Shown here piece after piece: positions 851 through 32,000 of a stretch of 32,000 nucleotides of DNA (its first letter is position 1; every line of letters starts with the position of its first letter). Position numbers and translations under genes: made by a program. Location: the NCBI RefSeq assembly GCF_018398935.1, contig NZ_CP074694.1, positions 4,530,001-4,562,000 of the forward strand, given 5' to 3'. The stretch comes from Telmatocola sphagniphila (GTDB lineage Bacteria > Planctomycetota > Planctomycetia > Gemmatales > Gemmataceae). Under the pieces are notes generated by a model. The model had not been told where the DNA came from. It searched no databases and was given only the letters and a program-made list of their open reading frames with translations.

Positions 851-878
851 GCACCCTTCGAGTCGGAGAAACTTAGAC

Positions 879-1310: not shown

Positions 1311-1502
1311 TCCCCTCGCCTTCCAACAGTCAAAAATGCAACTCGGGCTGAAACCCTCCCCCAGCGGGAAGGCCAGCCCCGACCGCTCCAAATTTCGCCT
1401 CGTTTTTCTGCGCTTTTTCCAATTGCACTCCTTCAATATTCGGATTACCATTAATGCATCGCCCCACTCTCCTGCCATGCCTCTTTCTGGAGGTTCTCTT
1501 CA

Positions 1503-2786: not shown

Positions 2787-2872
2787 TTGGAGCGATCAGC
2801 GAATAAATATTAGCATCGTTACAGATTTTAAGACTTAAACTGGGCTGAATTCTCTGACTGCTGACGGCTAAT

Positions 2873-2921
2873 AAAAAAATCAACCCGCGCGACCGGCACA
2901 CAAAAGTCGCGCGGGTTTTTT
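2873..2921. terminator. Bidirectional intrinsic terminator between convergent genes
   Basis: A perfect 10-bp GC-rich stem (cccgcgcgac 2884-2893 with gtcgcgcggg 2906-2915) encloses a 12-nt loop. It is flanked by an A7 run (2873-2879) and a T6 run (2916-2921). Confidence 0.85.
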
Positions 2922-2934
2922 CGTGAAATGAGTG

Positions 2935-10103: not shown

Positions 10104-10158
10104 TCGCCGGGTTCGGCGATTTAAAGTACTAACACGCGGGGTTCGAAAACCTCTCCGC

Positions 10159-11832: not shown

Positions 11833-12043
11833 AAGTTAGGTTCCGGGAGGCCTTGATTGCGAGTCATGCCTCGAAACTATCCTACCCCGTCCCGGTGGGG
11901 AACAAATGTCCGGGTGGGAGGAGATTGGGACTTAGACGCCGCGTCCGAGGGTCCAGTATCCAGGCCGTCGCGAAATTCCGCAACCCGATACCGTCGCCTC
12001 GGACGAAAAAATATCTGCAAAAACCAAATAACCGATGCAATCC

Positions 12044-13300: not shown

Positions 13301-13343
13301 GATCGAACTCGTATTAATTACCGTTCTTCATCGCGGTATAAAA

Positions 13344-14519: not shown

Positions 14520-14522
14520 CGA

Positions 14523-15722: not shown

Positions 15723-15808
15723 GGGAAAGTCCTCGCGAAAATCGCCGGTCCGCACAAGCGAACCGGCAGCCAATCCATTTGGCGGAATTCCGCCAGAGTC
15801 GCCCGGGA

Positions 15809-16933
15809 TTAAGGAATACCTAACAGTTTGGAGGAGAAGTTCGACACATCGTCGTAACCGTAGCCGGTCGATTGCTGCTGGTAATAGGGGTTGTTGCTCG
15901 GCTGCCAAAGTAAACCACCTGGGCCGAATCCGCCCTTCCCGTTGGTAGGATCTTTAATGGCGTACTGACCATCGGTACCGGCACTGATGATCTGGAAGCC
16001 GTTGGGCTTCACAAATTTGTTAGTTGAATCGACGTAAGGATTAATCGTATTACTGAATGATCCCGAAGGAGTTGAACAGTAAACTCTCAGGCCACCACCC
16101 AAGGAATTTGTGGTCAAGATAGGCAAATAGCCATTGGTTGAAAAATATTTGTTATTACCTGTAGTCAGATCTGCATAATCATTTCCATTACGACTGCCAA
16201 AGTAAGCATAAGGAACGTCATACGCATCCAAGAAACCAGGAAAGTAAGATACCTTTCCTACGTTGGGATCGAATTCATGCGAAATTAGCGCAGGATACGG
16301 AGTACCGGTAGTCCGGTTACTCAACTTGCCGGCCGGAAAATCGAAGTATGGTTTCTTATAGGTAATCGTCGGCTGACCTCCTGCTGCTATAGCAGGATTC
16401 CCAAAAGGATTGGTCGGATCATCCGAAAAACCAAGCCCTGCAGCAGCGAAATTATAATTTCCGCCACCATGCTGAGCATAACCACCCAATAGGAAAACCA
16501 ACACTTGCGAACCACTAATAACTTGATAATTCGCTCCAGATTGCACCGGTAACCCATTTGATCCGTTAGGACTAGGATTCCAGCGAGGGAACATTTTCTT
16601 TAGGAACGATTGACTATCAAGAACCATCTGAGGCATCCACTGAACAGCTGGATTAGGCAAATTCAAAGCAGCTTGATAGGCGGCGCCATAATTCGCCGCA
16701 ATCACCAAATGCGTCGGCGGCGTTAGATTCCCGTAATCGCTCCGGAACTGCCCGATGGCGTTATCCAGATTGGTGATATCGCTCCGGATACGAGCTTCAT
16801 AAGCTTTGGTGGTTGCCGCGGAAATCCCGACGAGCAGCAGGCCGACCAGGATGAAGATAATGCTCATGACCACCAGCATTTCCACAAGGGTAAATGCCTT
16901 ACGAGGGGTCATGGCGTGCGGTCGTGGTTTCAT
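15809..16933 (-). CDS. GspG-like (pseudo)pilin paralogue 1, expanded (374 aa); candidate major subunit
   Basis: ATG 16933 is preceded by AGGAGA with an 8-nt spacer. The listed start at 16939 is a TTG. The signal is MKPRPHAMTPRKA|FTLVEMLVVMSIIFILVGLLLVG with Ala at -1. YEARIRSDITNLDNAIGQFRSDYG is like the GspG alpha1-C region. QIISAGTDGQYAI...GYDDVSNF is like the GspG C-terminal motif. Confidence 0.75.
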   Translation of the reverse strand: MKPRPHAMTPRKAFTLVEMLVVMSIIFILVGLLLVGISAATTKAYEARIRSDITNLDNAIGQFRSDYGNLTPPTHLVIAANYGAAYQAALNLPNPAVQWMPQMVLDSQSFLKKMFPRWNPSPNGSNGLPVQSGANYQVISGSQVLVFLLGGYAQHGGGNYNFAAAGLGFSDDPTNPFGNPAIAAGGQPTITYKKPYFDFPAGKLSNRTTGTPYPALISHEFDPNVGKVSYFPGFLDAYDVPYAYFGSRNGNDYADLTTGNNKYFSTNGYLPILTTNSLGGGLRVYCSTPSGSFSNTINPYVDSTNKFVKPNGFQIISAGTDGQYAIKDPTNGKGGFGPGGLLWQPSNNPYYQQQSTGYGYDDVSNFSSKLLGIP

Positions 16934-17016
16934 GGCCAAAGTCTCCTGCTTGGTGCTCCCGGCGTCTGGCCGGGGAATCGAACGTCGGGCCCGGCCGCGA
17001 CGTTCGCCTCTGGTTG

Positions 17017-18255
17017 CTATTTGCTCAAACCTTCCAGCAGCTTAATCAAAGGTAAGAAGAGCGAGATCACAATCGCCCCGATGATAAAACCTAGCACGAC
17101 AATCATCAACGGTTCGATCAAGCTGATCAAACTTTTCACGGCCGTGTCGACTTCTTCATCGTAGAAGTCGGCAATCTTATAGAGCATGGAGTCGAGGTCG
17201 CCGGTCTCCTCGCCGACCTCCACCATGTTGCAAACCATATCGTCGACGAGCCGGCTTTCCTTCAGGGGTTCGGCAATCGTATCCCCTTCCCGGATCGACT
17301 CGTAAACGCGAGTAAACATTCGCTCGAACACGGCGTTATTGGCCGTGTCGCGGACAATACTCAACGCCTCCAATATCGGCACACCGGAGGCCACGAGGGT
17401 GCCCAGGGTGCGCATTGTCCGCGCTACAATCGTTTTCTCCACGAGGTTCCCGACGACGGGCACCCAGAGCAGCATCCTATCTAAGGCATATGTACCGGCC
17501 CTCGATAGTCGTATGAGTTTTATGAGAAGATAGAGCCCCATGGGGAACATCGGAATCGTCCACCAGTAATCGGCGAACCAGTTCGAGGTATCGATGAGGA
17601 TCTGCGTGGGCGCGGGCAACTTCATGTTGAATTCTTCGAAGATCTTTTTGAACTTCGGAATGATCGAGATCATGATGAACGTCAAGATACCGACGGCGAC
17701 CATGATAACCACGGCCGGGTAAACCATGGCGCCGATGATCTTGCGCTTGAGGCTCTGAGCCTTTTCCTTGAAGTCGGCCAGACGCTGCAAGATGATTTCG
17801 AGGGCACCGCCGGCCTCTCCGGCACGCACCATATTCACATAGAGACGGTCGAAGCAGCGGGGGTGCTTGGCCATGGCTTCGGACAGGGTGCTGCCCGATT
17901 CCACATCGTCCACCACGTCGATGAGGTTATTTTTCAGGGTGCTGGGCTTCATCTGCCGTTCGAGAATTCGCAGGCTGCGGAGCACGGGCAGACCGGCGTC
18001 CTGAAGCGTACTGAACTGGCGGGTGAAGGTACAAAGCATCTTGTTGGAGACGCCGCCGATGGTGAAGGTCTTGCGGGATTTACCCGTCTTCTTTTTCTTC
18101 TTCGTCTTCGTGTTCACGCCCATGGCGGTGAGCTTCGTGACGAAGTAGCCCATCTGCTTGATTTTCTGTTGCGCCTCTTCTTCGTTCAGCGCATCGATTT
18201 CGTCCTTGACTTCGGCACCGGCCGTGTCCAGAGCTTCGAATTTATATGTTGGCAT
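17017..18255 (-). CDS. pilC: Type IV filament platform protein (PilC/GspF family)
   Basis: The product is 412 aa. The N-terminus MPTYKFEALDTAGAEVKDEIDALNEEEAQQKIKQMGYFV is a typical GspF/PilC start. Two T2SSF-type repeats are present (...LSEAMAKHPRCFDRLYVNMVRAGEAGGAL... and ...IAEPLKESRLVDDMVCNMVEVGEETGDL...), along with three hydrophobic segments. RBS GGTGGAG. Confidence 0.9.
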   Translation of the reverse strand: MPTYKFEALDTAGAEVKDEIDALNEEEAQQKIKQMGYFVTKLTAMGVNTKTKKKKKTGKSRKTFTIGGVSNKMLCTFTRQFSTLQDAGLPVLRSLRILERQMKPSTLKNNLIDVVDDVESGSTLSEAMAKHPRCFDRLYVNMVRAGEAGGALEIILQRLADFKEKAQSLKRKIIGAMVYPAVVIMVAVGILTFIMISIIPKFKKIFEEFNMKLPAPTQILIDTSNWFADYWWTIPMFPMGLYLLIKLIRLSRAGTYALDRMLLWVPVVGNLVEKTIVARTMRTLGTLVASGVPILEALSIVRDTANNAVFERMFTRVYESIREGDTIAEPLKESRLVDDMVCNMVEVGEETGDLDSMLYKIADFYDEEVDTAVKSLISLIEPLMIVVLGFIIGAIVISLFLPLIKLLEGLSK

Positions 18256-18412
18256 ACCGTAAACTCCACCCCTGCGAATGGCTTAGCACTGGACGGGAAC
18301 GAGGGAGACAAACAATCTTATCCGCGTGCAAGCGAGTCCACATGTCCAAACGGAACAGAATCCCGTGCGAGCGGGCGGTCCTGTTCCCCCCAATATACGA
18401 TTTATCCGGCAA

Positions 18413-20374
18413 TCAACCTTCGTCTTCGAGCACCGTTTCGCGGACGATTTCTTCCACGTTACTGATGCCGTTGAACAGCATATCGATACCCCGTTCGCGA
18501 AGACCGCGAGCCCCCCGGGCGCGCACGGCGTTTCGTAGAGCATCGGTCGATGCCCCGCGCGAAACCATATCGCGGAGGTCATCGTTCATAATCAACATTT
18601 CATAAATCCCGGTTCGGCCCTTGAACCCGAGATTGTTGCACTTGTCGCAACCTTCCCCAAAGTAGAATTGGCGGCCCTTGAGATCTTCAGCCTTCATATT
18701 CAATTCCATCAGCTGTTCCCGGCTCGGATCGTAGCCGGTTTTACAGAACTGACAGATTTTTCGCACCAGACGCTGAGCCAGAATCGCCTCGACGGTGGCC
18801 GTGATCAAAAACGGCTCCACGCCCATGTCGCGCAGACGGGTGATCGTACTCGGTGAATCATTAGTATGCAAGGTACTGAACACCATGTGTCCAGTGAGGC
18901 TGGCCTGAATGGCAATTTGGGCAGTTTCCAGGTCTCGAATTTCGCCGACGAGGATTCGGTCGGGGTCCTGCCGTAAAATTGCCCGCAGCGCGGAGGCGAA
19001 CGTCAGGTCGATTTCCGCATTAATCGGGCACTGCACGATGCCGTCGATTTCATACTCGACCGGATCTTCGGTCGTGATGATTTTATCGGTTATTTCGTTC
19101 AGCTCGTTTAACGCGGAATAGAGCGTCGTCGTCTTACCGGCCCCGGTCGGCCCGGTCACCAGACAGATGCCGTTGGGCTTGCGGATGACGCTGCGGAAAT
19201 CGGCCAGGATATCTTCGGGCAGACCGATACGATCCAGTTCCAGACCGACCCGGGTACGGTCCAGAACCCGGATGACCACGCTCTCGCCAAACATGGTCGG
19301 CAGAACCGAAACGCGCATGTCGATGGGGTTGCCGCCGATGTTCAATTCGATGCGGCCGTCCTGCGGCAGACGGCGTTCGGCGATATCCAGGTTGGACATA
19401 ACCTTGATACGCGAGGAGATCGCCATTGCCAGGTGGCGCGGCGGCGGCACCATCTCATAGAGCACACCGTCGCAACGATAACGCATCTTGTATTCGTCTT
19501 CGAACGGTTCGAAATGGACGTCCGAGGCGTGGTCGCGAATGGCCATCAGCAGCACCATGTTGATGAGCTTGCGGACGGGGGCCGTATTGGCGATTTCGTC
19601 GATTTCGTCGAGGTCGATCGAGGTTTCGCGCTTGATCTTGTTGAAGCGATCGTCCACTTCGAGACTGTGAATCAGATCGGTGATCGATTCTTCCTTGGTG
19701 CCGCTGTAGGCCTTCTGGATGGCCGCTTCGATCTTCTTGACCGGCGCCAGACAGGCAATCACTGTTGGAATACCGAGGAAGTTCCGCACATCGTCGATGG
19801 CCTGCAGATTGTTCGGATCGGCCAGGACCACCGTCAGCGTGTCGTTATCGAACGAGATGGGCAGCATCTTATAGAGATTGGCCATGGTTTCCTGAACCAT
19901 GCCGAGGGCTTTGGCTTCGGGCTTGGTCTCGTCTAGATTGACGATCCGCATGCCCGATTGCTCGGCCAACGCCTGCAGCAACTGATCTTCGTTGATCAGA
20001 CCGCGTTCGACGGCGATCAGTTCCAGAGGGGAATCGGTGCTGCGGGCCTGTTCGAGCAGATCTTCCATCTGCAGTTCGTCGATGAACCCCAGGTCGACGA
20101 GAATCTGACCCAGCTTGCGGGTGCCCGAGGAGGGGGCGGTCTTTTTCGGGGCCGCTTTACCTTCGGCTTTTTTGACGACGGGCTTGGCCGCCGCCGGTTT
20201 CGCTTCGCCCGCTTTGGCCACAGGTGCCGCACCCGGCTTGGCCACGGGTTTGGCTCCGGGAGCGGCCGGCTTAGCCCCAGGGGCAGCTGTCGGCTTGACC
20301 ATCGGTTTGGGCGCCGTGGGCTTCGTGGGATCGGGCTTCTTTCCGTCGTTCGATTTATTGGAAGGGGTGGTCAT
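18413..20374 (-). CDS. pilB: PilB/GspE-family assembly ATPase (paralogue 2) with a Pro/Ala/Lys-rich N-terminal extension
   Basis: Motifs seen are Walker A GPTGAGKTTT, Walker B ILVGEIRD, His box GHMVFSTLHTND and a tetracysteine CQFCK...CDKCNNLGFKGRTGIYE. A T2SSE_N/MshEN-like domain follows about 85 aa of KPTAPKPMVKPTAAPGAKPAAPGAKPVAKPGAAP. Confidence 0.9.
   Translation of the reverse strand: MTTPSNKSNDGKKPDPTKPTAPKPMVKPTAAPGAKPAAPGAKPVAKPGAAPVAKAGEAKPAAAKPVVKKAEGKAAPKKTAPSSGTRKLGQILVDLGFIDELQMEDLLEQARSTDSPLELIAVERGLINEDQLLQALAEQSGMRIVNLDETKPEAKALGMVQETMANLYKMLPISFDNDTLTVVLADPNNLQAIDDVRNFLGIPTVIACLAPVKKIEAAIQKAYSGTKEESITDLIHSLEVDDRFNKIKRETSIDLDEIDEIANTAPVRKLINMVLLMAIRDHASDVHFEPFEDEYKMRYRCDGVLYEMVPPPRHLAMAISSRIKVMSNLDIAERRLPQDGRIELNIGGNPIDMRVSVLPTMFGESVVIRVLDRTRVGLELDRIGLPEDILADFRSVIRKPNGICLVTGPTGAGKTTTLYSALNELNEITDKIITTEDPVEYEIDGIVQCPINAEIDLTFASALRAILRQDPDRILVGEIRDLETAQIAIQASLTGHMVFSTLHTNDSPSTITRLRDMGVEPFLITATVEAILAQRLVRKICQFCKTGYDPSREQLMELNMKAEDLKGRQFYFGEGCDKCNNLGFKGRTGIYEMLIMNDDLRDMVSRGASTDALRNAVRARGARGLRERGIDMLFNGISNVEEIVRETVLEDEG
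20123..20344 (-). repeat. Low-complexity Pro/Ala/Lys-coding tract (N-terminus of PilB paralogue 2)
   Basis: Degenerate (A/P)(A/G)AKP(V/A) units are visible in translation. The DNA shows reiterated ggctt/ggcc/cggg motifs. Confidence 0.7.
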
Positions 20375-20496
20375 TTTTTCATCTATCCTGTTTCGGCTAC
20401 CCGGTCTTCACCTAGCGAGGGCTATCGTTTTCTGATCATTCCTTTTTTTCGGGGCGAGGTCAGCGCCCCTCAAGTCGAAGCAGCCACGGCGGCTTT

Positions 20497-21699
20497 CTAC
20501 GAGCGGCCGTAGTTCAGTTTCTTCTTGGGAGGCGGTCCGCCCTTGCGGGGCTTGTCATCATCGTCGTCCTCATCGTCCATATCGTCGTCGTCATCCTCAT
20601 CGTCTTCGTACTCGTCGTCTTCCAGAAGGCCCTTCTCGGCGGCGGCGATTTTGGCGGCCAGGTCGGCCGGTTTCTTCGAACGCAGCAGCACTTCTTCCTT
20701 ATCGCAGAGGCCAGTCTTCCAGAGATTGAAGAGACTGTCGTCGAGGAGGAACATCCCGTACTTACGACCGGTCTGGATACTCGAGTCGATTCGATACACT
20801 TTGTTTTCGCGAATCAGGTTCTGGATAGCATCGGTCACCACCATCATTTCGTAGGCGGCGATCACCCCTTCGGGCTTCTTCGGCAGAAGCGCCTGGGACA
20901 ACACCCCCATCAGAGCGGTCGACAGCTGCGTGCGAACCTGATCCTGCTGGTCTTTCGGGAACACGTCGATAATTCGGTTGATCGTCGAAGCGGCCCCGGA
21001 GGTGTGCAGCGTACCGAACACGACGTGGCCGGTTTCGGCGGCTTCGATGGCCGCGTGAATCGTCGCCAAGTCTCGCATTTCACCGACGAGGATGACGTCC
21101 GGATCCATACGCAAGGCCCGGCGAATCCCTTCCTTGAAGTCGGGGACGTCCACCCCGATTTCCCGCTGGTTCACGGTGCACTTTTTGTGCTTGTGGTAGT
21201 ATTCGATCGGGTCTTCGAGGGTGATGATATGTCGGTCGTAGTTGTCGTTGATGAAGTTGGTCATCGACGCCAGCGAAGTGGTCTTTCCCGAACCGGTCGG
21301 CCCGGTGACCAGCAACAGACCGCGCGGCCGGACGATCAGCGATCGAATGGCGTCGGGCATCATCAGCTGTTCGAAGGTGAGGAACTGGCTGGGAATGCGG
21401 CGGAGCACCATGCCGATGGTGCCGCGCTGTTTGAAAATCGCACAGCGGAAGCGGTAGCCGTCGGTGAATTCGATGGCGAAGTCCGATCCCCCTTTTTCCT
21501 GCAGTTCCTGCTGGCAGCGATCGGGCGTGATGGACTTCATCAGCGCGGTCGTATCGTCGTTATCGAGAACTTTGGTTTCCAGCTTGCGCATGCGCCCATT
21601 GTGCCGGACGACGGGAGGCTGTCCGACGGATATGTGCAAGTCGCTGGCTTTGAGCTGGATGACGGTCGCCAGCAATTTATCGATCATTACCGTGGCCAC
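20497..21699 (-). CDS. pilT: PilT retraction ATPase with an atypical acidic C-terminal tail
   Basis: Motifs seen are IDKLLATVIQLKASDLHISVGQPP, Walker A GPTGSGKTTS, ILVGEMRD, GHVVFGTLHT and the PilT-specific AIQNLIRENKVYRIDSSIQTG. The start is either GTG 21699 (AGGAGA, 4-nt spacer) or ATG 21687. About 55 residues extend beyond the canonical PilT end. Confidence 0.92.
   Translation of the reverse strand: MATVMIDKLLATVIQLKASDLHISVGQPPVVRHNGRMRKLETKVLDNDDTTALMKSITPDRCQQELQEKGGSDFAIEFTDGYRFRCAIFKQRGTIGMVLRRIPSQFLTFEQLMMPDAIRSLIVRPRGLLLVTGPTGSGKTTSLASMTNFINDNYDRHIITLEDPIEYYHKHKKCTVNQREIGVDVPDFKEGIRRALRMDPDVILVGEMRDLATIHAAIEAAETGHVVFGTLHTSGAASTINRIIDVFPKDQQDQVRTQLSTALMGVLSQALLPKKPEGVIAAYEMMVVTDAIQNLIRENKVYRIDSSIQTGRKYGMFLLDDSLFNLWKTGLCDKEEVLLRSKKPADLAAKIAAAEKGLLEDDEYEDDEDDDDDMDDEDDDDDKPRKGGPPPKKKLNYGRS
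20554..20622 (-). repeat. GAY/GAR codon run encoding EDDEYEDDEDDDDDMDDEDDDDD
   Basis: A run of gtc/atc/ctc triplets on the plus strand spans 23 codons, 21 of them Asp or Glu. It is followed by a basic KPRKGGPPPKKK tail. Confidence 0.9.
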
Positions 21700-21747
21700 G
21701 GGATCTCCTGAATAACCTCAATGAGCGGGCTTGGCTGACAACTACTG

Positions 21748-23457
21748 CTACTCGTGATCGGAATGGCAGATACTCAAAATTTCTTCGACGGTGGTGACGC
21801 CTCGGAGACACTTCAGCACACCGTCTTCCAGAAGGTTGCGCATCCCGGTTTCGCGAGCGACGCGACGGATTTGCTGGGCAGGGGCCTGTGCGAAGGTCAT
21901 TTCTCGAATCTTCGCGTTCAGGGCCATCATTTCGTAGATACCGGTTCGGCCGCGGAAGCCGCACTGGTTGCAGTTGCTGCAGCCGCGGCCCCGCATGAAG
22001 TTCGCTCCCTTGAGCTGTTCGGGCTTGATCCCGGCCGAGAGAATTTCGGCTTCGGGAGGCACGTAAGCGACCTTGCACTTACTGCAGTTCACGCGGGCCA
22101 GACGCTGGGCCATAATCGCGATCACCGAAGAGGCGATCAAGAACGGCGGCACGCCGATGTCGGCCAGCCGGGTAATGGCCGAGGGGGCATCGTTGGTGTG
22201 CAGCGTGGAGAACACCAAGTGACCCGTCAGTGAAGCCTGCACGGCGATTTCCGCCGTTTCCTTATCGCGAATTTCCCCCACCAGAATGATGTTGGGGGCC
22301 TGTCGCAACATGGCGCGGATAATTCGCTGGAAATCGAGGCCGATGTTGTGCCGGACTTCCACCTGATTAATCCCCGGCAGGTAGTATTCCACCGGGTCTT
22401 CCGCCGTGATGATTTTGCGGTCGGGCCGGTTGAGTTCATTCAACGCGGCATAGAGCGTCGTCGTTTTGCCCGAACCGGTCGGTCCGGTCACCAGAAAGAT
22501 GCCGTTGGGGCGTTTGATGATCTTCTGGAAGCGCAGATAGTCGTCTTCGCCGAAGCCCATATCCCGGATGTTCACCTGGATGTTGCCGCGGTCGAGAATA
22601 CGCATCACGCAGGACTGGCCGTGCACGGTCGGCAAGAAGCTAACGCGAAGGTCGAAGTGCTTGCCCTGAATGGTCGTTTTGATCCGACCGTCCTGGGGCC
22701 GGCGCTTCTCGGCAATGTCGATATTGCCCATAATCTTCAAACGGCTGACCATAGCCGCCTGCAAACGACGGGGGATGGCATCGCGCTCGACGAGAATGCC
22801 GTCGATGCGATAGCGGATTCGGACGCGATCCGCAAACGGCTCGATGTGGATGTCGCTGGCCCGCTGGGCCACCGCTTCCGCGAGCATCATATTGCAGAGC
22901 CGGACCACCGGAGCGTCGGAATCGCCGGCATCGGAGTGAGCCGCCCGGGCCGCTTCGGTCTGGGTGAATTCGATCTGGGTGTCGGTGAATTCGGAAAGCA
23001 TGGAGTCCATCGACTCCGTTTCCGTTTGGCCGTAGTGCCGGTTGATCGATTCGCGAATTTGCTCGTGATCCGCCAGCACCGGGGTGACGTCTTTATTCAG
23101 AATGAAGGTCAGCTTCTGAATGGTATCGTAGTTGGTGGGGTCGGAGGTGATGAGCTTGAGAACGTTTCCTTCGAGTTGCAGTGGCAGAACGACGTTTTCT
23201 CGGGCCACGGATTCCGGTACCAATTCGATGACTGACTTGGCGATTTCCACGCCTTCGAGATCCACGTATTGCAGGCCATGGAATTCGGCCATGGCCGCCA
23301 TGACTTCTTTTTGAGTCAGGTAGTTCGATTTGACCAGTGCTTCCTGGATCTTGGTACCGGTCGAAGAGCTCAGGCGCAGTGCTTCTTCTAACTGATCGGG
23401 GCCAATGAGGCGATTGCGGATGAGAATATCGGTAAAGTCGCCGCGTGCCTTGGCCAT
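21748..23457 (-). CDS. pilB: PilB/GspE-family assembly ATPase (paralogue 1), first gene of the operon
   Basis: The start is reassigned to ATG 23457, preceded by AAGGAGA with a 9-nt spacer, giving 569 aa. Motifs seen are an N-terminal T2SSE_N-like domain, Walker A GPTGSGKTTT, ILVGEIRD, GHLVFSTLHTND and CSKCK...CSNCNQCGFRGRTGIYE. Confidence 0.9.
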   Translation of the reverse strand: MAKARGDFTDILIRNRLIGPDQLEEALRLSSSTGTKIQEALVKSNYLTQKEVMAAMAEFHGLQYVDLEGVEIAKSVIELVPESVARENVVLPLQLEGNVLKLITSDPTNYDTIQKLTFILNKDVTPVLADHEQIRESINRHYGQTETESMDSMLSEFTDTQIEFTQTEAARAAHSDAGDSDAPVVRLCNMMLAEAVAQRASDIHIEPFADRVRIRYRIDGILVERDAIPRRLQAAMVSRLKIMGNIDIAEKRRPQDGRIKTTIQGKHFDLRVSFLPTVHGQSCVMRILDRGNIQVNIRDMGFGEDDYLRFQKIIKRPNGIFLVTGPTGSGKTTTLYAALNELNRPDRKIITAEDPVEYYLPGINQVEVRHNIGLDFQRIIRAMLRQAPNIILVGEIRDKETAEIAVQASLTGHLVFSTLHTNDAPSAITRLADIGVPPFLIASSVIAIMAQRLARVNCSKCKVAYVPPEAEILSAGIKPEQLKGANFMRGRGCSNCNQCGFRGRTGIYEMMALNAKIREMTFAQAPAQQIRRVARETGMRNLLEDGVLKCLRGVTTVEEILSICHSDHE

Positions 23458-23755
23458 AGACAAAAATCTCCTTCGGAGGGCAGATCCCCCGCATTCGGAT
23501 GGCCTTCGGGAAATGCCAATGCCATCCCCATAGCAATCCAATAGATAGGAACCACCCCAGTAGCCCGATTCCCCAGCGCTGCAGTGCTTTATGAATCTTT
23601 TGTCATTTTGAGCAAGTACTGGAGCATATGCAAGTGAAAAGTCGTCGAGTCCAGTTTGGAGATAACCGCTCCTGTTGGACTAATCCGCGCGGCTCCCGAG
23701 GGGAGGCCGGGCGGCCGAAACTGATATGCGGGTTGCGCCGTTTTTGAGCGCGGGA

Positions 23756-24525: not shown

Positions 24526-24609
24526 GCCGAGGTGGCGGAATTGGCAGACGCGCTAGCCTCAGGAGCTAGTCCTCGCAAGGGGGTGCAGGTTCAACTCCTG
24601 TCCTCGGCA
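24526..24609 (+). tRNA. tRNA-Leu (anticodon CAG), type II with a long variable arm
   Basis: The 7-bp acceptor stem pairs GCCGAGG with CCTCGGC, and the discriminator is A. The D-stem is 3 bp. The anticodon stem pairs CTAGC with GCTAG around the loop CTCAGGA. The variable arm is TCCTCGCAAGGGGGT and the T-arm is GCAGG-TTCAACT-CCTGT. No CCA is encoded. Confidence 0.9.
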
Positions 24610-24739: not shown

Positions 24740-25987
24740 ATGGCGTCCTTGCAGAAGAAAAATCAATCGTACTACTGTCAGTTCCTTTTCCAGGGCAAAC
24801 GTTACACGGTTACGATCGGCCAGGTCAGTGACCAAGAGGCCAATGCCTTCGTTGGGAAAATCGAACATTTATTGATGCGAATAAGGCAAAAGCTCTTGGC
24901 CGTGCCTAAAGGAGTTAAAATCGTCGATTTTCTTCTCACTGATGGTCAGGTGACTTCGGAACCACTCGAGGAAGAAGGCCCCCTCACCCTGGAATTTCTC
25001 CGCGATCTCTATTTGCAAACTCACGGGAACGGGGCGCTCGAAGCAAATACCCTCTACACCGCCAAGATTCACCTGAAGCACATAGAACGCACTCTCGAAG
25101 CCAAGTTCAATTTGCGGACCCTCTCTTCTGCGGATTTGCAGAAACATATCAACCGGCGTGTCAAAGCGAAAGGACTGAGGGGCAAGAAGCTAAGCGGCTA
25201 TACGATTCGCAAAGAAATCAAGACGTTGCGTGCTGTGTGGAATTGGGCGAAAGAATCCACTTTACTCAAAGGTGAATTCCCGGCCAACAAGTTGGCCTTT
25301 CCGAAGATCGAAGAGAAACCTCCTTTCCAAACTTGGCCGGAAATCGAAAAGCGTCTTTCCAAAGGTAATGTCACGGAGGGCGAAGCGGCCGATCTTTGGG
25401 ATTGCGTCTTTCTCACCCTTCCAGAAATCGGCGAACTTCTCGATCATGTGCGAGTGTCCGCTACTCATCCCTGGATTTATCCCATGTTCTGTTTCGCGGC
25501 TCATACCGGCGCGAGACGTTCCGAATTACTCCGCCTTCAGGTTTCCGATATCGACTTGGAAGCCAAGCATGTTTTCATCCGCGAGAAGAAGAAGTCAAAA
25601 ACCAAAAGTACGCTGCGACGAATTCCGATTTCCGGATTCCTGATTGATGCAATGCAAGCATGGCTGGCGAAGCATCCAGGAGGAGCATTTCTATTCGGCC
25701 AATCGGGTCGGCTCGAACACGGAAAGAAATCACGGACAAGCACAGTCCCGATCACCGAAGATGAGGCACATGACCATTTCAAGAGGACATTGGCCGGGAG
25801 TAAATGGAAAGTGTTGCGGGGCTGGCATGTGCTGCGGCACAGTTTCGCATCGAATTGCGCTGCCAAAGGGATCGATCAGCGGCTCATTGATTCCTGGATG
25901 GGGCACACAACTGAAATCCGGCGAAGATACTTGCACTTGATACCAACGAATGAGCAGCAGGCGCTTTCGCTCGTATTCGATGGTTAG
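24740..25987 (+). CDS. int: Tyrosine recombinase / phage-type integrase
   Basis: AGGAGA RBS. The N-terminal arm-binding-like region reads SYYCQFLFQGKRYTVTIG. The catalytic residues can be read as HTGARRSELLRL (Arg), HVLRHSFAS (His-x-x-Arg), WMGH (His) and RRYLHL (Tyr). Confidence 0.9.
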   Translation: MASLQKKNQSYYCQFLFQGKRYTVTIGQVSDQEANAFVGKIEHLLMRIRQKLLAVPKGVKIVDFLLTDGQVTSEPLEEEGPLTLEFLRDLYLQTHGNGALEANTLYTAKIHLKHIERTLEAKFNLRTLSSADLQKHINRRVKAKGLRGKKLSGYTIRKEIKTLRAVWNWAKESTLLKGEFPANKLAFPKIEEKPPFQTWPEIEKRLSKGNVTEGEAADLWDCVFLTLPEIGELLDHVRVSATHPWIYPMFCFAAHTGARRSELLRLQVSDIDLEAKHVFIREKKKSKTKSTLRRIPISGFLIDAMQAWLAKHPGGAFLFGQSGRLEHGKKSRTSTVPITEDEAHDHFKRTLAGSKWKVLRGWHVLRHSFASNCAAKGIDQRLIDSWMGHTTEIRRRYLHLIPTNEQQALSLVFDG

Positions 25988-26377: not shown

Positions 26378-28552
26378 ATGACAAATATTCTCCTTATCGT
26401 CGCTCGGTGGTTCTGGTGCGTACCGAGCGTAAAAAGTGAACTCCATAAACACACACAGAATACGTCGCATGACATTCTGTCGTGCTTGGTCAACGTTAGG
26501 CTGTTCAGCGTCGCCTTCGTAGCGACTCCACTCATTTCCCTAATACCCTACGCGCTTACTGAGTCCCATGTATGGGGTCTCATCAGTTTCGGTATCGGTA
26601 CCCTTTCGATTATCCTCTGGCTCAGCCTCTTGGGAGGGATCAGACAGAGCTCGCAAGTTACGAGACCGATCAAACTCGGAGCTTGGGCTACGATTATCAT
26701 AAGCGCCGCTCTCGGAGTATGGCTCTTCGTGGCATCGGCAGTGGGTATTGAGCCATGGTGGATACTTGTTGGATACTTGTGGCTTCAATTGTTCACAGGA
26801 GTGCCATTCGCACTAACCTATGGGGTGGACTCAAAATTGTCTGGCCGAGTCTACGACCGAATCCGTTTGCCGGGGAAGTGCCCAATATCGCCAGGAGGTG
26901 AGTTTCGCAAATGTAAAACTGCTGGAGCAACTGCCGCTGCAGCGGTCGGCGCCTTCGTGTGGTGCTTAGTGCTGATCTGCCATCCGAATGCAAGCCGGTC
27001 ACCATGGTGTTACTCTTTGATTTTCTTAATAAATATTGTCCCAATGGTGCTTCTCCTTTACTGGATCCAAAAACTAGAACTGTCGGCTGGTCTAAATATC
27101 CATAGCGACACCGAAGAGATACAGTCGCAGCACGACTCAATTAAAAAGGATGTCTGGGAATCCATTCTCGCTGTCGGATTCTTGGAAGGTCTGCTTCAAT
27201 TCTCACAGTTTTACTTCTCGATCAAAGCTATAAAGATGTTGTTCGACAAGGTTCCTACATACCCCTTACTTTGTACGATATTCATACCATTGCTGTTCTA
27301 CATAATCAATAGTACGGAATTGATAGGAGTGACACTTTTCCGTAGATTCTTCCGCAATCCAGAGCGTGAGTCCAAGAAACGTCAATATATAGCACTAAAA
27401 ACACTTTTAGTCACTGTCTCAATTTTTGCTATCCACATTGCTACATGGATGATATGCGGATGGTATATTGCTATGGATGTGGTAGCATTTTCAGTGTTCA
27501 ACATTGTCAAAGGGTGCGCAGGCGGGCTGTCGGAAGAATGGCAAGAAGCATTACGGCAAAAAAAGAGAACACAACTCGACCGATGTGACGAAGCAATTTT
27601 TTCAGCTCGATCCGCACTGATTGGCCGTCTATATCAAATCGCTGCGATAATTGTTTATATGATCGCTACAGTTCTCGTTGCCAATGATGATGTCTTCGAC
27701 GCCTTTCACAATCTGTCACCTAATACTCTCAAACCAGATCAAAACTCGGCGGTCTTTGCCAGTACGCTGACTGTCTTCGTCTTTCTCCTACTCGCTGCCA
27801 ACCTCTTGGTTTACCTGTGGAGCGCAGACGGAACTCCGCGCAAGACGCCCATAGAAGTGTTTCTCGATGGGATTCGATACCGGGATCAGCGGCGCGCTAT
27901 GTTGACGCAGTTACTGCGTGTATCGTTCGTTGTATCCTTGGTGTTGTCCAACTTTCTTGCAGTGAAGTTAGCCGACATTCGAGGTGTATCCTTCAGTCAC
28001 GGTGGCCTGTGCTATGTCTTTTGTTTCGTAATCCTTCACCTAATGGTTGCGTTCGAGGGCGTGGAGGCGGCTGTCAAGACGGTGCTTCTCGGTATGGCAT
28101 CATATCCATTTGTCTACATCGCGCTTGTGGTATCTTCAACCGGACCGGGTCGGGTCATGGATGGGGGTGGTATTTCCACTGACCAGTACAATTCATTGTT
28201 TGGCCACACTGTCTCGATGCTTTTCGTTGCCAGCCTGATGGGCTACATCATAACAGTCGTACTGGATATGCTACTTATGAGTTACTTGATTCGATATTTC
28301 GGCGCGGACAAGGCACTAGTGGTTGGAGCGTTCGTGACCTGCATCTGCCAATTCCTAGACTCAGCCCTCTTTGTATACATTGGCTACTTTACAGCGCTAC
28401 AGGCCAATATTTGGCCCTTGATTATCGGCCAGTTCGCAGTTAAATTCTGTACTTTTTTAGTGCTGTATTTTCCGTTATACCTCTTCATCCGGATGCTTGA
28501 CAGGCAAGCTTGGCAGCAGGGCGGGCGCGTGTCAGATGCCATTTCCTTGTAA
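26378..28552 (+). CDS. 724-aa polytopic membrane protein; the C-terminal ~230 aa are YhhQ/DUF165 (queuosine-precursor transporter)-like
   Basis: Many hydrophobic segments occur throughout. From about 27860, SNFLAVKLADIRGVSFSHGGLCYVFCFVILHLMVAFEGVEAA and ASLMGYIITVVLDML...VTCICQFLDSALFVYIGYF...IIGQFAVKFCTFLVLYFPLYLFIRML align by eye with E. coli YhhQ blocks (SNYLVQLPV..FPFIFLATDLTVRIFGAPLA; ASFMAYALGQILDVHVF..GNVSDTLAFFFIAF..VDYCFKVLISIVFFLPMYGVLLNML). The start codon is uncertain. Confidence 0.55.
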   Translation: MTNILLIVARWFWCVPSVKSELHKHTQNTSHDILSCLVNVRLFSVAFVATPLISLIPYALTESHVWGLISFGIGTLSIILWLSLLGGIRQSSQVTRPIKLGAWATIIISAALGVWLFVASAVGIEPWWILVGYLWLQLFTGVPFALTYGVDSKLSGRVYDRIRLPGKCPISPGGEFRKCKTAGATAAAAVGAFVWCLVLICHPNASRSPWCYSLIFLINIVPMVLLLYWIQKLELSAGLNIHSDTEEIQSQHDSIKKDVWESILAVGFLEGLLQFSQFYFSIKAIKMLFDKVPTYPLLCTIFIPLLFYIINSTELIGVTLFRRFFRNPERESKKRQYIALKTLLVTVSIFAIHIATWMICGWYIAMDVVAFSVFNIVKGCAGGLSEEWQEALRQKKRTQLDRCDEAIFSARSALIGRLYQIAAIIVYMIATVLVANDDVFDAFHNLSPNTLKPDQNSAVFASTLTVFVFLLLAANLLVYLWSADGTPRKTPIEVFLDGIRYRDQRRAMLTQLLRVSFVVSLVLSNFLAVKLADIRGVSFSHGGLCYVFCFVILHLMVAFEGVEAAVKTVLLGMASYPFVYIALVVSSTGPGRVMDGGGISTDQYNSLFGHTVSMLFVASLMGYIITVVLDMLLMSYLIRYFGADKALVVGAFVTCICQFLDSALFVYIGYFTALQANIWPLIIGQFAVKFCTFLVLYFPLYLFIRMLDRQAWQQGGRVSDAISL

Positions 28553-28599
28553 GCACCTGACTGGGCATTGAAGCGTTGAGGATGTAGTAGGTCATCATG

Positions 28600-28730
28600 C
28601 TGCAGAGGCTGTCCTTCGAGTAGTTGTTCTTCAGCAGGGAGAACGCGAAACGACGCAGCTAGGTCAGGTCGTTGCCCATTACGCGTTCGCGTATCCGGTC
28701 GTCGACTTGCCGAGCGCGACGGTCAATCGC
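28600..28730 (-). pseudogene. Relic of an ISAs1/IS4-like transposase C-terminus with an in-frame stop
   Basis: Minus-frame translation gives AIDRRARQVDDRIRERVMGNDLT*LRRFAFSLLKNNYSKDSL. The spacing and residues resemble the ISAs1-type tail (ED..RIR + 17 aa + LLK/R). TAG lies at 28658-28660. The patch is more GC-rich than its surroundings and has no upstream transposase body. Confidence 0.4.
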
Positions 28731-28929
28731 TGTCTCTTATAAACGAATTAACAGTAACACGGATCGCCCTTTTTCTGGATGGAAGCGACGGGTTGCCCAC
28801 CCCACAATCAAGGAAGACGGGCCCATCCGCTCTAATAATTGATTTTTATTTTATACGAAAAACGTTAAACGGCATCGATCATATTCCGTACTACAAATCT
28901 CAGTGGTTGGAGGCGGAAAATCTAAATCA

Positions 28930-29577
28930 CTAATGGCACAAATACTCGGCAACAAATCGAAGGTCATCCATCCAGTCGTAAATTAACCTTTGCGGTCTTA
29001 AAAGTGGACATGTCAGTAAGATCAGGCTAGGTCGATTCAGAACACCTATGCCATAGTTGGGAGCAAGGTTAGAAGCAGCACGTCGGGAGTGTTGATTCTT
29101 ATGTGCGAAGTAATTTCGGAATACTGGAAGATCGACAAATACCCGTGTGCTAATTGAGAGCGCGGCCGCAATATCAGATGTATTTGAGAATCGTTCGGAG
29201 ACTGATAACTCTAATAGAGTATTACTGAGATACCATTTTGGCTCGAGTCGTCTTTGATACTCACCAACAGCATTAGGCACAGCCCCAGGATTATAGTAGA
29301 GAACGGCACGGCCAATACATTGGTTCAAACTGAGTCCAGGATTTGCAATAGTAATCCACCCCCCGCCACACTTCTTGGCCTGAGCCATGCATGCGAGGAA
29401 ATAACCGCGCATGAAGTTCGACCAGACGTTCAGAAGCTGAATGGTCACGTATCCCACTACCTTTTCAATATCCCGTAGAGTGGCGTTAGGGGGAATTCCT
29501 TGAATGTCACGCCGTAATCGGTTCAATTGAGTTAGGAGGGTTCTCCGGATTTTCTTGAGGCGAGTTGTTCGTCTCAT
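28930..29577 (-). CDS. Hypothetical protein with a HEPN-like R-N-x-x-x-H motif, translationally coupled to DUF262
   Basis: ATG 29577 overlaps the upstream TGA (ATGA at 29574-29577). The product is 215 aa and looks helical. It carries VDLPVFRNYFAHKNQH, where RNYFAH fits the HEPN Rx4-6H motif and specifically the RNxxxH form. I recognise no other family. Confidence 0.45.
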   Translation of the reverse strand: MRRTTRLKKIRRTLLTQLNRLRRDIQGIPPNATLRDIEKVVGYVTIQLLNVWSNFMRGYFLACMAQAKKCGGGWITIANPGLSLNQCIGRAVLYYNPGAVPNAVGEYQRRLEPKWYLSNTLLELSVSERFSNTSDIAAALSISTRVFVDLPVFRNYFAHKNQHSRRAASNLAPNYGIGVLNRPSLILLTCPLLRPQRLIYDWMDDLRFVAEYLCH

Positions 29578-30620
29578 TGAAGCATCTGGGGTCTCATTGC
29601 TGTTGAGTATGTTTTGAACCGCATCTCACGATTTATCTTGGTATTCGTCCCAGCTCTACTGGCTGAAACGAAGTTAATTAGAAATTCCGGTGGGTCCTCA
29701 GCATCCAAGGCCTCAGAAATCGCTCCCAGATTTGCCAGCACGATGTCATCGTTAAACGTTCGCAAAGCCGAAGCCTGGTAAACAGAATTCAGGACTGACA
29801 AAGGCTTCAATGCGTGGGAAATCGCAAGGAAAAATGTGAAAAATTGGAATGGTTTCATGAGGGTAGTGTTATGAATTTGCTCCCATCTTAGGATATGGGT
29901 AAATGCTTGGTCTATCCTGGTCGACATGTCCTGTTCTTCTGGAAACTCAGCATCTTTGTCAGTGTAGAATTTATTCAAGAGTGATTGCGATGCGGTTTTT
30001 ATTCCCGTGAGCATAGTCATAACGATCTCTGAAAGAAGGCCTGAATCCTGCATTCTGCTAAGTTGCTTTTCAGTGAAGACACCAATTGATTTCAACGTAT
30101 TCTCATATCTTTCTGTCACTTCAACGATGAACCATTTCAACTCTCCTTGGTGGGTGGCGTGACGTTTCTCTTGTGGATTCAGCGGCACCGTGTAGGAGTT
30201 CATCCGGCGGAACACTTGGCGGATTTCATTATCCGTCGCTCCTACGAACACATCAGCGGATATGGAATAGCTGATGAATCGTTGTTTATCTCCTTGATCC
30301 AATTGATCGTACGACCTTCCAGAGAACTCGCTTTTTCCCGTGAGTCGGAATTTATTTTCATAGAAGTCTAAAATTGCTTTGCTTCTTTGCTGTCCGTCAA
30401 CGATTTCCTTTACTGTCTTTCTACTCCGTAAGTCAGTTTTCTGAGATAGGCAGAACTTCGGAATCGGGAAACCGTGGAGAATAGTGTCGATTAGATACGA
30501 ACGAGCAGCGGGTGGCCAGACGGCATCGGAACGCTGATAATCGCGATTGATCGTGATTGATCCTTTCTCCATTTGGTCACAGTATTCGGCGATCGTGAAT
30601 CCGGTCGTAGTTACTTGCAT
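29574..30620 (-). CDS. DUF262 (ParB-like nuclease/NTPase domain, GmrSD N-terminal type) protein lacking the DUF1524 nuclease half
   Basis: ITINRDYQRSDAVWPPAARSYLIDTILHGFPIPKF and IVDGQQRSKAILDFYENKF are the two DUF262 signature blocks (QR..vW and DGQQR). At 348 aa the protein has no His-Me/HNH-like motif in its C-terminal half. Confidence 0.8.
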   Translation of the reverse strand: MQVTTTGFTIAEYCDQMEKGSITINRDYQRSDAVWPPAARSYLIDTILHGFPIPKFCLSQKTDLRSRKTVKEIVDGQQRSKAILDFYENKFRLTGKSEFSGRSYDQLDQGDKQRFISYSISADVFVGATDNEIRQVFRRMNSYTVPLNPQEKRHATHQGELKWFIVEVTERYENTLKSIGVFTEKQLSRMQDSGLLSEIVMTMLTGIKTASQSLLNKFYTDKDAEFPEEQDMSTRIDQAFTHILRWEQIHNTTLMKPFQFFTFFLAISHALKPLSVLNSVYQASALRTFNDDIVLANLGAISEALDAEDPPEFLINFVSASRAGTNTKINREMRFKTYSTAMRPQMLQ

Positions 30621-30878
30621 TGTCGGATCCTAAGTATTCTCGAGGTATTTTTTGTCCGTCTTCCCCGTCGAACACAATAAATTTATGACTGCTTACTCAA
30701 ATTTACAGCCAAAACGACCTAAAAACTGTTCGAAAAACGGGTAATCCATATCGCTGTCTCTGAAGCACGCTCCCTTACATCGGTGCTCTTGGTGGCTGCT
30801 TAGGATATCCGTATGATAGAAAAAACTGACTTAAAGCAGACATAAGTGCCATGAATATTTACAGAGGCGAATTCCTGA

Positions 30879-32000
30879 ATGATATTCTCCAACCCGAAGC
30901 GGATGAAACAGAAAACGCCCAATAAAGAATCGTGGTTCAATTTCTATGCCGGATATTCAGGGGCGTTTGTTCGAGACGTATTAGTTCAGGTGATGCCGAA
31001 TAATCAGGGGCGGGTGTTGGACCCGTGGAATGGGAGCGGTACCACTACAACAACTGCACATGAGCAAGGTATCGACTCTACCGGTATCGATATTAACCCA
31101 GTCATGATTATTGTCGCAAAGGCGAAATTACTGTCACCAGGAGTTGTTGAAAGCTTGCTGCCACTTGCAGAAGAGATTATTGCTTTAGCAAAGCAGACGA
31201 AAAAGCGAATCCATTATACCGACCCCCTCTTGGAATGGTTTACCCCGGCTGGGGCTTTACCAACTCGATTATTAGCTGACGCAATTTCCAAAATACTGAT
31301 GCCTAGCGAGGCTTGGGAGAAAGTATTCCTCTCAGACCATATTTGTCTAGTGTCTGATCTTGCCGCTTTCTTTCTGGTCGCTCTGTTTCGAACAACCAGA
31401 TCTCTCGTCGTGCGATTTCGACCAACCAACCCAACGTGGATCAAAGCGCCGGAATCTGACAAATGTCGGATTCGACCTAACCCCGAAAAAGTCTACGATG
31501 AGTTTCGTTTGAATATTCGGGAAATGCTGGCTGGGGTGGCACCAATTTCTGGGCAAGCAAACACAATTATTTCCCTCGGTTCATCTAGTGACCTTCCATT
31601 AGCAAAGAAGAGTGTCGATGCGGTTATTGCTTCACCGCCGTACTGTACAAGAATTGATTACGCAATTGCCACGAAGCCAGAATTGGCGGTACTTGGTTAT
31701 TCGCAGAAGAGAGATTTTGATTCTTTGCGGCGACTTATGATGGGTGGTCCTGTTGTTACCTCTTTAGCCAGTTCAACAAAATCAGGATGGGGTGAAAACT
31801 GCGTAAATTTCTTAAAAGCAGTTGAGACACATCCTTCGAAGGGATCACGCAGCTATTACCACAAGCTGTTCTTGCAATACTACGCTGCCATGTACGAATC
31901 ACTGCAAGAGATCAATCGTGTACTGGTACCTGATGGCCAGTGCGTCCTTGTGGTACAGGACTCCTTTTACAAAGAAGTACACATTGATGTTGCAAAGCAT
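30879..32000 (+). CDS. DNA methyltransferase (N6-adenine or N4-cytosine class), 3' end beyond the window; not in the supplied ORF track
   Basis: My own translation gives 374 sense codons with no stop, from ATG 30879 (TGA immediately upstream) to base 32000. The AdoMet motif I is VLDPWNGSGTTT (about 31017-31052). The catalytic motif IV is VIASPPYCTRIDY (SPPY = 31632-31643). Motif I precedes motif IV by about 200 aa. Confidence 0.8.
   Translation, partial: MIFSNPKRMKQKTPNKESWFNFYAGYSGAFVRDVLVQVMPNNQGRVLDPWNGSGTTTTTAHEQGIDSTGIDINPVMIIVAKAKLLSPGVVESLLPLAEEIIALAKQTKKRIHYTDPLLEWFTPAGALPTRLLADAISKILMPSEAWEKVFLSDHICLVSDLAAFFLVALFRTTRSLVVRFRPTNPTWIKAPESDKCRIRPNPEKVYDEFRLNIREMLAGVAPISGQANTIISLGSSSDLPLAKKSVDAVIASPPYCTRIDYAIATKPELAVLGYSQKRDFDSLRRLMMGGPVVTSLASSTKSGWGENCVNFLKAVETHPSKGSRSYYHKLFLQYYAAMYESLQEINRVLVPDGQCVLVVQDSFYKEVHIDVAKH

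Follow-up and report, generated by a model that had tools for sequence, protein, structure and literature searches.

A conserved two-gene module of a DUF262 protein and a small HEPN-like partner in Telmatocola sphagniphila

The stretch of DNA analysed here, referred to as the window, comprises 32,000 nucleotides of the Telmatocola sphagniphila contig NZ_CP074694.1 (positions 4,530,001 to 4,562,000). Near its right end, a gene for a 348-residue DUF262 protein (DUF262a) and a gene for a 215-residue protein (a member of a family termed fam215) follow each other on the minus strand, and the stop codon of the former overlaps the start codon of the latter in the tetranucleotide ATGA (Table 1). A gene for an N4/N6 DNA methyltransferase is transcribed divergently, from an ATG at 30879 that lies 258 nucleotides from the DUF262a start, or from the ATG at 30903 preferred by the gene caller (282 nucleotides). 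The original prediction for this locus, made from the sequence alone, had described a translationally coupled module and asked whether it is a relative of GmrSD with a swapped nuclease; it is confirmed in the two DUF262 signature blocks without a DUF1524 domain, in the overlapping second open reading frame (ORF) with its RNYFAH motif, and in the divergent methyltransferase gene, and the module is such a relative in the sense of a DUF262 protein plus a HEPN-like protein without DUF1524.

DUF262a is identical to WP_213494665.1 of T. sphagniphila and carries the motifs NRDYQRSDAVW and VDGQQRS. Its sole Pfam domain match is GmrSD_N (DUF262; 7.6e-19), and DUF1524 was found by Pfam in neither DUF262a nor the 215-residue protein. 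The best PADLOC match is NsnA of the Menshen system (1.6e-35, residues 2-245), followed by PD-T4-2_A (4.9e-16, residues 17-224) and by REase_II ('type II restriction enzyme', a model of similar length; 5e-9). Among 30 homologues, the residues Y28 Q29 R30, G76 Q77 Q78 R79, and F137 R138 R139 N141 are invariant; these elements, which read YQR, DGQQR and FRRMN in DUF262a, are the three nucleoside triphosphatase (NTPase) motifs described for GmrSD-like DUF262 proteins (PMC10952713, PMC12065111). The AlphaFold model (pLDDT, the predicted local distance difference test, 92.9) has an alpha/beta N-terminal domain and a helical, NsnA-like C-terminal half; past residue 160 it is helical and holds no beta-beta-alpha unit. 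Foldseek placed BrxU first (7p9k_A, E 7.8e-4, probability 0.99), followed by SspE and ParB cytidine triphosphatases. On sequence and model, DUF262a is thus predicted to be a ParB/Srx-like NTPase domain joined to an all-helical C-terminal half.

For the conservation of the pair, an alignment of DUF262 homologues was scanned over one genome per species, which yielded 80 loci (78 usable) with 32-55% identity to DUF262a of the window. Conservation of the two genes as neighbours, on which the original prediction had been made to depend, was borne out: a fam215 member immediately follows on the same strand in 75 of the 78 usable loci, at a spacing of -32 to +25 nucleotides (exactly -4 or -1 in 22 loci), and the fam215 partner is likewise present in all four IMG/VR viral contigs that have the DUF262 gene. 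Loci without a tight pair represent contig ends, truncated DUF262 genes, two cases in which the genes are split by insertions (1.6 and 2.7 kilobases), and one gap of 91 nucleotides. The pairs are distributed over Acidobacteriota, Nitrospirota, Planctomycetota, Chloroflexota, Cyanobacteriota, Bacteroidota, Actinomycetota and Pseudomonadota, and occur on islands, plasmid-like elements and proviral contigs. Pairwise identities of DUF262a and of fam215 are correlated (rho 0.83, Mantel p <= 0.0005). Judged by these genome comparisons, DUF262a and fam215 form a conserved unit with near-obligate pairing.

Two side observations were made at these loci. Insertions of about 2.7 kilobases in locus L051 (6537-9249) and of about 1.6 kilobases in locus L059 (6831-8456) disrupt the DUF262 gene or the pair; they may be mobile elements by which the module is inactivated. 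In the metagenomic locus L002, a gene for an XhoI-family restriction endonuclease (2236-3063) is convergent to the pair, a context resembling a defence island.

The 215-residue sequence was recorded, by exact look-up, only from a raw-read assembly and is absent from the NCBI protein set, in which DUF262a is present; the ORF is probably unannotated there or given another start. A word-indexed search recovered three relatives, each located behind a DUF262 gene with a four-nucleotide overlap, and the exhaustive profile search extended the family to 772 cluster representatives (50% identity) at E<=1e-3, and to 262 at E<=1e-30. The window protein carries VFRNYFAHKN, and the motif RN[FY][FY][AG]H / R[ND]xx[AGS]H is found in 140 of 153 family members. 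Conservation of its residues R154, N155 and H159 is 90% or higher (140 sequences), which places them among twelve near-invariant positions, and W52, F55, R57, S62, E112, P113 and W115 are conserved as well; in a divergent subfamily, the motif is kept and its R and H are invariant. The AlphaFold model is of very high confidence (pLDDT 97.7; predicted template-modelling score, pTM, 0.92) and entirely helical, with the motif at the end of helix 146-159.

The original prediction had taken the 215-residue protein to be HEPN-like, and this assignment was examined by profile and structure comparison. The sole defence-related Pfam matches of 166 family members and of consensus sequences were marginal (HEPN_RiboL-PSP, 0.0016 and 0.016; HEPN_Swt1, 0.012; DUF4145, about 0.1), and two family members are named in UniRef as 'RiboL-PSP-HEPN domain-containing protein' and 'Abi-like protein'. 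Among the Foldseek matches, all of them below significance, HEPN-MNT toxins appear repeatedly (E 3-8) and have the top probabilities and target-normalised template-modelling (TM) scores, the best being 8xeh_D (target-normalised TM 0.59, probability 0.21, not significant). A fam215 profile search of the PDB sequences gave no match. With tblastn against plasmids, the window protein gave no match and a Brevundimonas family member a single weak and partial one (E 0.2), and a scan of genome contigs with one fam215 alignment (A1) gave no confirmed matches.

With hhalign, fam215 was not significantly similar to single HEPN sequences, nor to a shallow RiboL-PSP profile and seeds (P about 0.1). The divergent subfamily (alignment A4), when compared with an alignment of four MAE_28990-type HEPN partners of DUF262 genes as annotated by Pfam (A5), gave P 2.2e-4 at a score of 33.4 and a probability of 45%. 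This alignment spans 114 columns, colinear between the first conserved helix (LWqxWxxFcR versus LYaxxExF) and RNxxAH; none of 60 column-shuffled templates reached its score (mean 11.4, maximum 16.0). The window's own subfamily (A2) and A4 belong to one family (E 2.8e-35). Shallow profiles have little power in such comparisons, as seen in a control: the MAE_28990-type seeds reach only P 0.29 against the RiboL-PSP seeds, though both Pfam models overlap on the MAE_28990 seed L089. The 215-residue protein is, by its conserved motif and this profile match, very probably a divergent HEPN protein of the MAE_28990/RiboL-PSP branch; the best evidence for its HEPN nature came from the context, in the DUF262-HEPN pairs on plasmids and in the island itself.

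Such pairs with other partners were encountered on plasmids. On Escherichia coli plasmids, a DUF262 gene is followed by a gene for a RiboL-PSP HEPN protein (PF18735, 177 residues) or for a MAE_28990 HEPN protein (PF18737, 211 residues). PADLOC 2.0 gave no match to the HEPN partners of loci L088 (4021-4554) and L089 (3931-4566), though Pfam recognises both, and the DUF262 genes of these two loci score higher for NsnA than for PD-T4-2_A; PADLOC probably misses or mislabels DUF262-HEPN pairs of this kind. The partners at the further plasmid loci in Table 1 are varied, which looks like effector swapping behind a single type of sensor.

The methyltransferase of the window contains motif I (DPWNGSGTT) and motif IV (SPPY), and matches N6_N4_Mtase in Pfam (7.5e-11) and MTase_II in PADLOC (3.2e-24). 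Depending on the start used, it comprises 417-425 residues, and the gene continues past the window to about window-equivalent position 32156. It shares 40% identity with a methyltransferase encoded immediately ahead of the pair in the metagenomic locus L001, where methyltransferase, DUF262 and partner genes are on one strand and adjoined by genes for an integrase and a ParA-like protein. Homologues are adjacent to the pair in 23 of the 80 loci, with three different arrangements among them, which include a co-directional upstream gene and a convergent gene shortly past the pair, and in one of the four viral contigs; clustering of the neighbouring genes gave no other family in more than two loci. 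Methyltransferase distances correlate with those of both DUF262a and fam215 (rho 0.42 and 0.47, p <= 0.0005).

A contig that extends the locus (L105, of which 321-3406 corresponds to about 30903-33988 in window numbering) encodes a second DUF262 protein (DUF262b; 378 residues, with a DGLQR variant) on the same strand as the methyltransferase and 12 nucleotides past it, followed with an overlap of four nucleotides by a 228-residue HEPN protein (RNGVSH; Pfam HEPN_MAE_28990/HEPN_RiboL-PSP). The island thus holds two head-to-head DUF262-HEPN pairs around a single methyltransferase, and the two DUF262 proteins share 24% identity over 174 residues. This set of five genes (methyltransferase, DUF262b, MAE_28990-type HEPN, DUF262a, fam215) was found again in two further lineages: in Pseudomonas corrugata DSM 7228 all are on one strand (L074, 2552-7706), and in a metagenome-assembled genome of Myxococcales the second pair is convergent (L011, 4708-10653). 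Their recurrence in varied arrangements suggests that the two pairs are retained as a set rather than being neighbours by chance.

The features of the window around the module, and the plasmid loci, are summarized in Table 1. Following a cluster for type IV pili or type II secretion, the order is tRNA-Leu, recombinase, membrane protein and DUF262a-fam215 module; the content of guanine plus cytosine (GC) drops from about 0.55 to about 0.45 past position 27000 or so, and the pair lies within the part of low GC content. The tRNA-Leu and the tyrosine recombinase are likely the left edge of an island, and the setting looks like an integrated mobile island beside tRNA-Leu. A probe for att (attachment-site) repeats with GGTTCGAATCC, an 11-nucleotide consensus of the T-arm pattern rather than the sequence of this tRNA-Leu, gave no match in the window. 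A truncated ORF at the start of the extending contig (L105, 1-234; …DTMERPFFSLSKKP…) appears to resemble the N-terminus of plasmid RepA-type initiators, which would fit an integrative plasmid-like element.

Table 1. Coordinates of the module and of other features in the window (window numbering), and of DUF262 loci on plasmids (locus numbering)
Feature	Position	Strand	Basis or remarks
DUF262a gene (348 aa)	29574..30620	-	ORF call, Pfam, PADLOC, AlphaFold model
fam215 gene (215-aa HEPN-like partner)	28930..29577	-	ORF call
ATGA, overlap of DUF262a stop and fam215 start	29574..29577	-	plus strand reads TCAT
Divergent intergenic region, DUF262a / methyltransferase	30621..30878	.	258 nt (282 nt if ATG 30903 is used)
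N4/N6 DNA methyltransferase, 5' part	30879..32000	+	translation, Pfam, PADLOC
tRNA-Leu(CAG)	24526-24609	+	ARAGORN
Tyrosine recombinase (phage integrase family)	24740-25987	+	Pfam Phage_integrase 6.2e-23
724-aa polytopic membrane protein	26378..28552	+	Pfam Vut_1 4.7e-14
Plasmid DUF262 locus, Glutamicibacter	L084 2986-4684		partner: unmodelled 206-aa protein with RNQAAH
Plasmid DUF262 locus, Pseudanabaena	L085 2986-5230		partner: protein kinase
Plasmid DUF262 locus, Rhizobium	L086 3001-6385		partner: RelA/SpoT-like protein split by IS5
Plasmid DUF262 locus, Pantoea	L090 2875-6182		partner: DUF3696 (Menshen)

In the 724-residue membrane protein, the Vut_1 (YhhQ-like) domain occupies the last 160 residues and is preceded by a long extra N-terminal membrane region; the gene is island cargo in the interval from integrase to module and is not kept beside the pair at other loci. 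The approximately 380 nucleotides between this gene and the end of the fam215 gene (28553-28929) contain no convincing gene, and short ORFs on both strands there could be a gene remnant. The divergent intergenic region presumably holds the promoters of both DUF262a and the methyltransferase; a scan of it for sigma-70 promoters and terminators gave nothing above chance. The pilus or secretion cluster (4551-23541, minus strand, GC content about 0.55) encodes three ATPases of the T2SSE/PilB-PilT type, one T2SSF platform protein and, in a row, five proteins of 376-557 residues with N-terminal prepilin methylation motifs, followed by an 1850-residue ORF (4551-10103).

The closest characterised analogue of the module is PD-T4-2 of E. 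coli ECOR65 (Vassallo et al. 2022), which was listed as 'DUF262, HEPN', with a second ORF of 'No ID' and without accession (PMC9519451). Its B protein matches HEPN_RiboL-PSP (97.8%) and MAE_28990 (96.9%) in HHpred, and the system protects against T4 in the native strain and in K-12; deletion from the native strain restores T4 plaquing (PMC9519451). Both modules consist of two adjacent, co-directional genes of about 1.5-1.7 kilobases in total, of which the first encodes a DUF262 protein without DUF1524 (with the window protein fitting the PD-T4-2_A model, as given above) and the second a small, all-helical Rx4H protein, and in both the second ORF was apparently overlooked by annotation. They differ in that fam215 is matched by neither the Pfam RiboL-PSP-HEPN model nor the PADLOC PD-T4-2_B model, the latter of which likewise does not match a Pfam-confirmed RiboL-PSP partner on an E. 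coli plasmid; in the length of the partner (215 residues versus about 165-177); in the match of DUF262a to PD-T4-2_A across just two thirds of its length; and in the methyltransferase, which PD-T4-2 lacks and which about 30% of the fam215 loci have.

Operons of ParB(DUF262), HEPN (MAE_28990 or RiboL-PSP) and DNA methylase genes were described already by Anantharaman et al. 2013 (Biol Direct 8:15; PMC3710099). Their three-part gene content equals that of the window, in which the methylase is divergent at 258-282 nucleotides. One example annotated by Pfam (methyltransferase, DUF262b, PF18737/PF18735 HEPN) is found in the island itself, head-to-head with the module, and fam215 aligns to the HEPN proteins of this class at the P value given above. 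However, fam215 is outside both Pfam models, and DUF262a is only distantly related to DUF262b; the class itself was defined by comparative genomics only, and a PrrC-like or restriction-modification-coupled ribonuclease (RNase) role is a proposal. PD-T4-2 and these operons having been described, the architecture and the proposed logic of the module are already known, and the original prediction, in which the pair was not recognised as a named defence system, does not stand on this point: DUF262 plus HEPN is the validated and named PD-T4-2. New here are a partner family that is large and has no model, the near-obligate association of this family with a single DUF262 subfamily, and the recurrent double-pair islands with a shared methyltransferase.

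Two further systems share the DUF262 component. Menshen (NsnABC) resembles the module in its NsnA, the best PADLOC match of DUF262a, with a ParB-DUF262 domain, a helical DNA-binding half and a proposed sensor role; NsnA outscores PD-T4-2_A also for the DUF262 partners of Pfam-confirmed HEPN proteins on the E. coli plasmids. The window contains neither an NsnB gene (ABC-ATPase/DUF3696) nor the inPIN-effector gene NsnC beside DUF262a, and the putative effector follows the sensor directly, whereupon the operon ends; membership in Menshen was therefore rejected. GmrSD, BrxU and SspE have the DUF262 NTPase fold and DGQQR in common with DUF262a, with BrxU and SspE as the top structural matches. The module is not GmrSD because a DUF1524 His-Me nuclease is neither fused nor adjacent (none by Pfam in either protein, and both models are helical where the domain would lie); instead, the putative effector is a separate protein of RNase type, and the methyltransferase link implies, in some loci at least, the opposite logic, in which unmodified DNA is targeted. 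As for type II restriction-modification, Pfam recognised no DNA-cleaving (DNase) domain beside the methyltransferase; DUF262a does match the PADLOC REase_II model.

Taken together, we consider it likely, with room for doubt, that DUF262a and fam215 represent one functional unit of the ParB/DUF262 plus HEPN class of defence modules, to which PD-T4-2 and the ParB-MAE_28990 HEPN-methylase operons belong. The DUF262 protein would both sense and switch: its NTPase domain, which is ParB-like, and the helical half that binds DNA would scan DNA and respond to its modification state or foreignness. Both proteins would be produced at a constant ratio, the DUF262 protein probably keeping the small partner inactive in a complex, and an NTP-dependent rearrangement on foreign DNA would free or activate the partner. 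The Rx4H site of the partner (R154/N155/H159) would then act as a metal-independent RNase on cellular or phage RNA, and RNA cleavage may stop translation and lead to growth arrest or abortive infection. Where a methyltransferase is linked, it would most likely label the host's own DNA, which the sensor would then pass over. This sensor-effector model is based on the module anatomy, on the NTP-driven switching of DUF262 in BrxU and SspE (PMC10952713), and on the sensor role proposed for NsnA, together with a suggestion that ParB-DUF262 proteins linked to a methylase might act on unmodified genomes (PMC12065111); we infer the complex formation, RNase activity, trigger and defence phenotype of DUF262a-fam215.

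Several observations weigh against this interpretation. Pfam, PADLOC (including PD-T4-2_B) and NCBIfam gave no significant model match to the 215-residue protein, to the 166 family members or to the consensus sequences, and Foldseek with the 215-residue model returned nothing significant from PDB and BFVD despite the very confident model. The window's own subfamily A2 was not significantly similar to the HEPN seeds in hhalign (P 0.19-0.31); the divergent subfamily A4 alone reached P 2.2e-4, and at a probability of just 45%. The HEPN assignment of the original prediction is partly supported: it draws on the conserved Rx4H motif, the all-helical model and the modest MAE_28990 profile match, while the structure search brought no significant HEPN match. 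Further, about 70% of the loci are without a linked methyltransferase of the window's family, so self-marking is no general requirement and the pair can work without one. In Telmatocola, the methyltransferase heads the DUF262b-HEPN operon outside the window, not that of DUF262a-fam215, and hence is not simply assignable to the latter pair; the methyltransferase link that had been proposed stands as an association at the level of the family.

Alternatively, though this is unlikely, the module may be a DNA-targeting system akin to restriction-modification, in which DUF262 nicks or cleaves unmarked DNA and the 215-residue protein, instead of being an RNase, is a subunit with an accessory, specificity or regulatory role. 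Such a role would fit the REase_II match of DUF262a, the methyltransferase homologues adjacent in 23 of 80 loci, the tracking of methyltransferase distances with those of both partners (rho 0.42-0.47), and the 2013 survey, which terms the ParB partner a nuclease (PMC3710099). However, neither protein has a recognised DNase domain (PD-(D/E)xK, HNH/His-Me, GIY-YIG), DUF1524 is the cutting domain in characterised DUF262 enzymes and DUF262 the NTPase (PMC10952713), the invariant residues of fam215 are the R, N and H of HEPN type, and the methyltransferase is missing at most loci.

It is quite unlikely that the 215-residue protein is no HEPN enzyme but an adaptor or regulator of DUF262 from a new helical family, with RNxxAH in a structural or binding role and the effector activity located elsewhere. 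The failure of standard searches to find a significant HEPN model or structure, and the low hhalign probability, speak for this reading, but R, N and H are the best-conserved residues across about 770 clusters, the alignment with MAE_28990-type HEPN proteins is colinear up to the motif and scores above all 60 shuffles, and a Pfam-recognised HEPN protein occupies the same position beside the paralogous DUF262b in the island. The least probable alternative, a toxin-antitoxin-like addiction module that stabilises its element through a HEPN-like toxin and a neutralising DUF262 without dedicated phage sensing, accords with the overlapping two-gene operon with a small putative RNase in second place, with the carriage on islands, plasmid-like elements and proviral contigs and with the recurrent, non-significant fold matches to HEPN-MNT toxins, but a 348-residue NTPase with fully conserved catalytic motifs would be an unusually elaborate antitoxin, PD-T4-2 protects its native host against T4, and the restriction enzymes and methylases in the neighbourhoods are typical of defence islands.

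A further proposal has only a small chance of being correct: the forms linked to a methyltransferase would be a counterpart of restriction-modification that acts on RNA, in which self DNA is marked, DUF262 reads the missing mark on incoming DNA, and HEPN cleaves RNA in place of a cut in the DNA. The two anciently diverged pairs (DUF262a with fam215, and DUF262b with the MAE_28990 HEPN) around one methyltransferase, found in Planctomycetota, Gammaproteobacteria and Myxococcota, may serve as two read-outs of that one mark, either redundant by design or cooperative.

Neither Pfam nor PADLOC nor NCBIfam detects the fam215 family, a near-obligate partner of DUF262 with 772 clusters, and its gene is apparently unannotated in this genome at least. 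Present tools for finding defence systems hence undercount DUF262-HEPN modules, a gap that a profile made from the fam215 alignments would close. DUF262 proteins are assumed to be sensors of DNA modification, and the loci with and without a methyltransferase, together with the double-pair islands, provide a natural comparison that bears on how DUF262 signals to a separate effector and how it is tuned to unmodified versus modified DNA.

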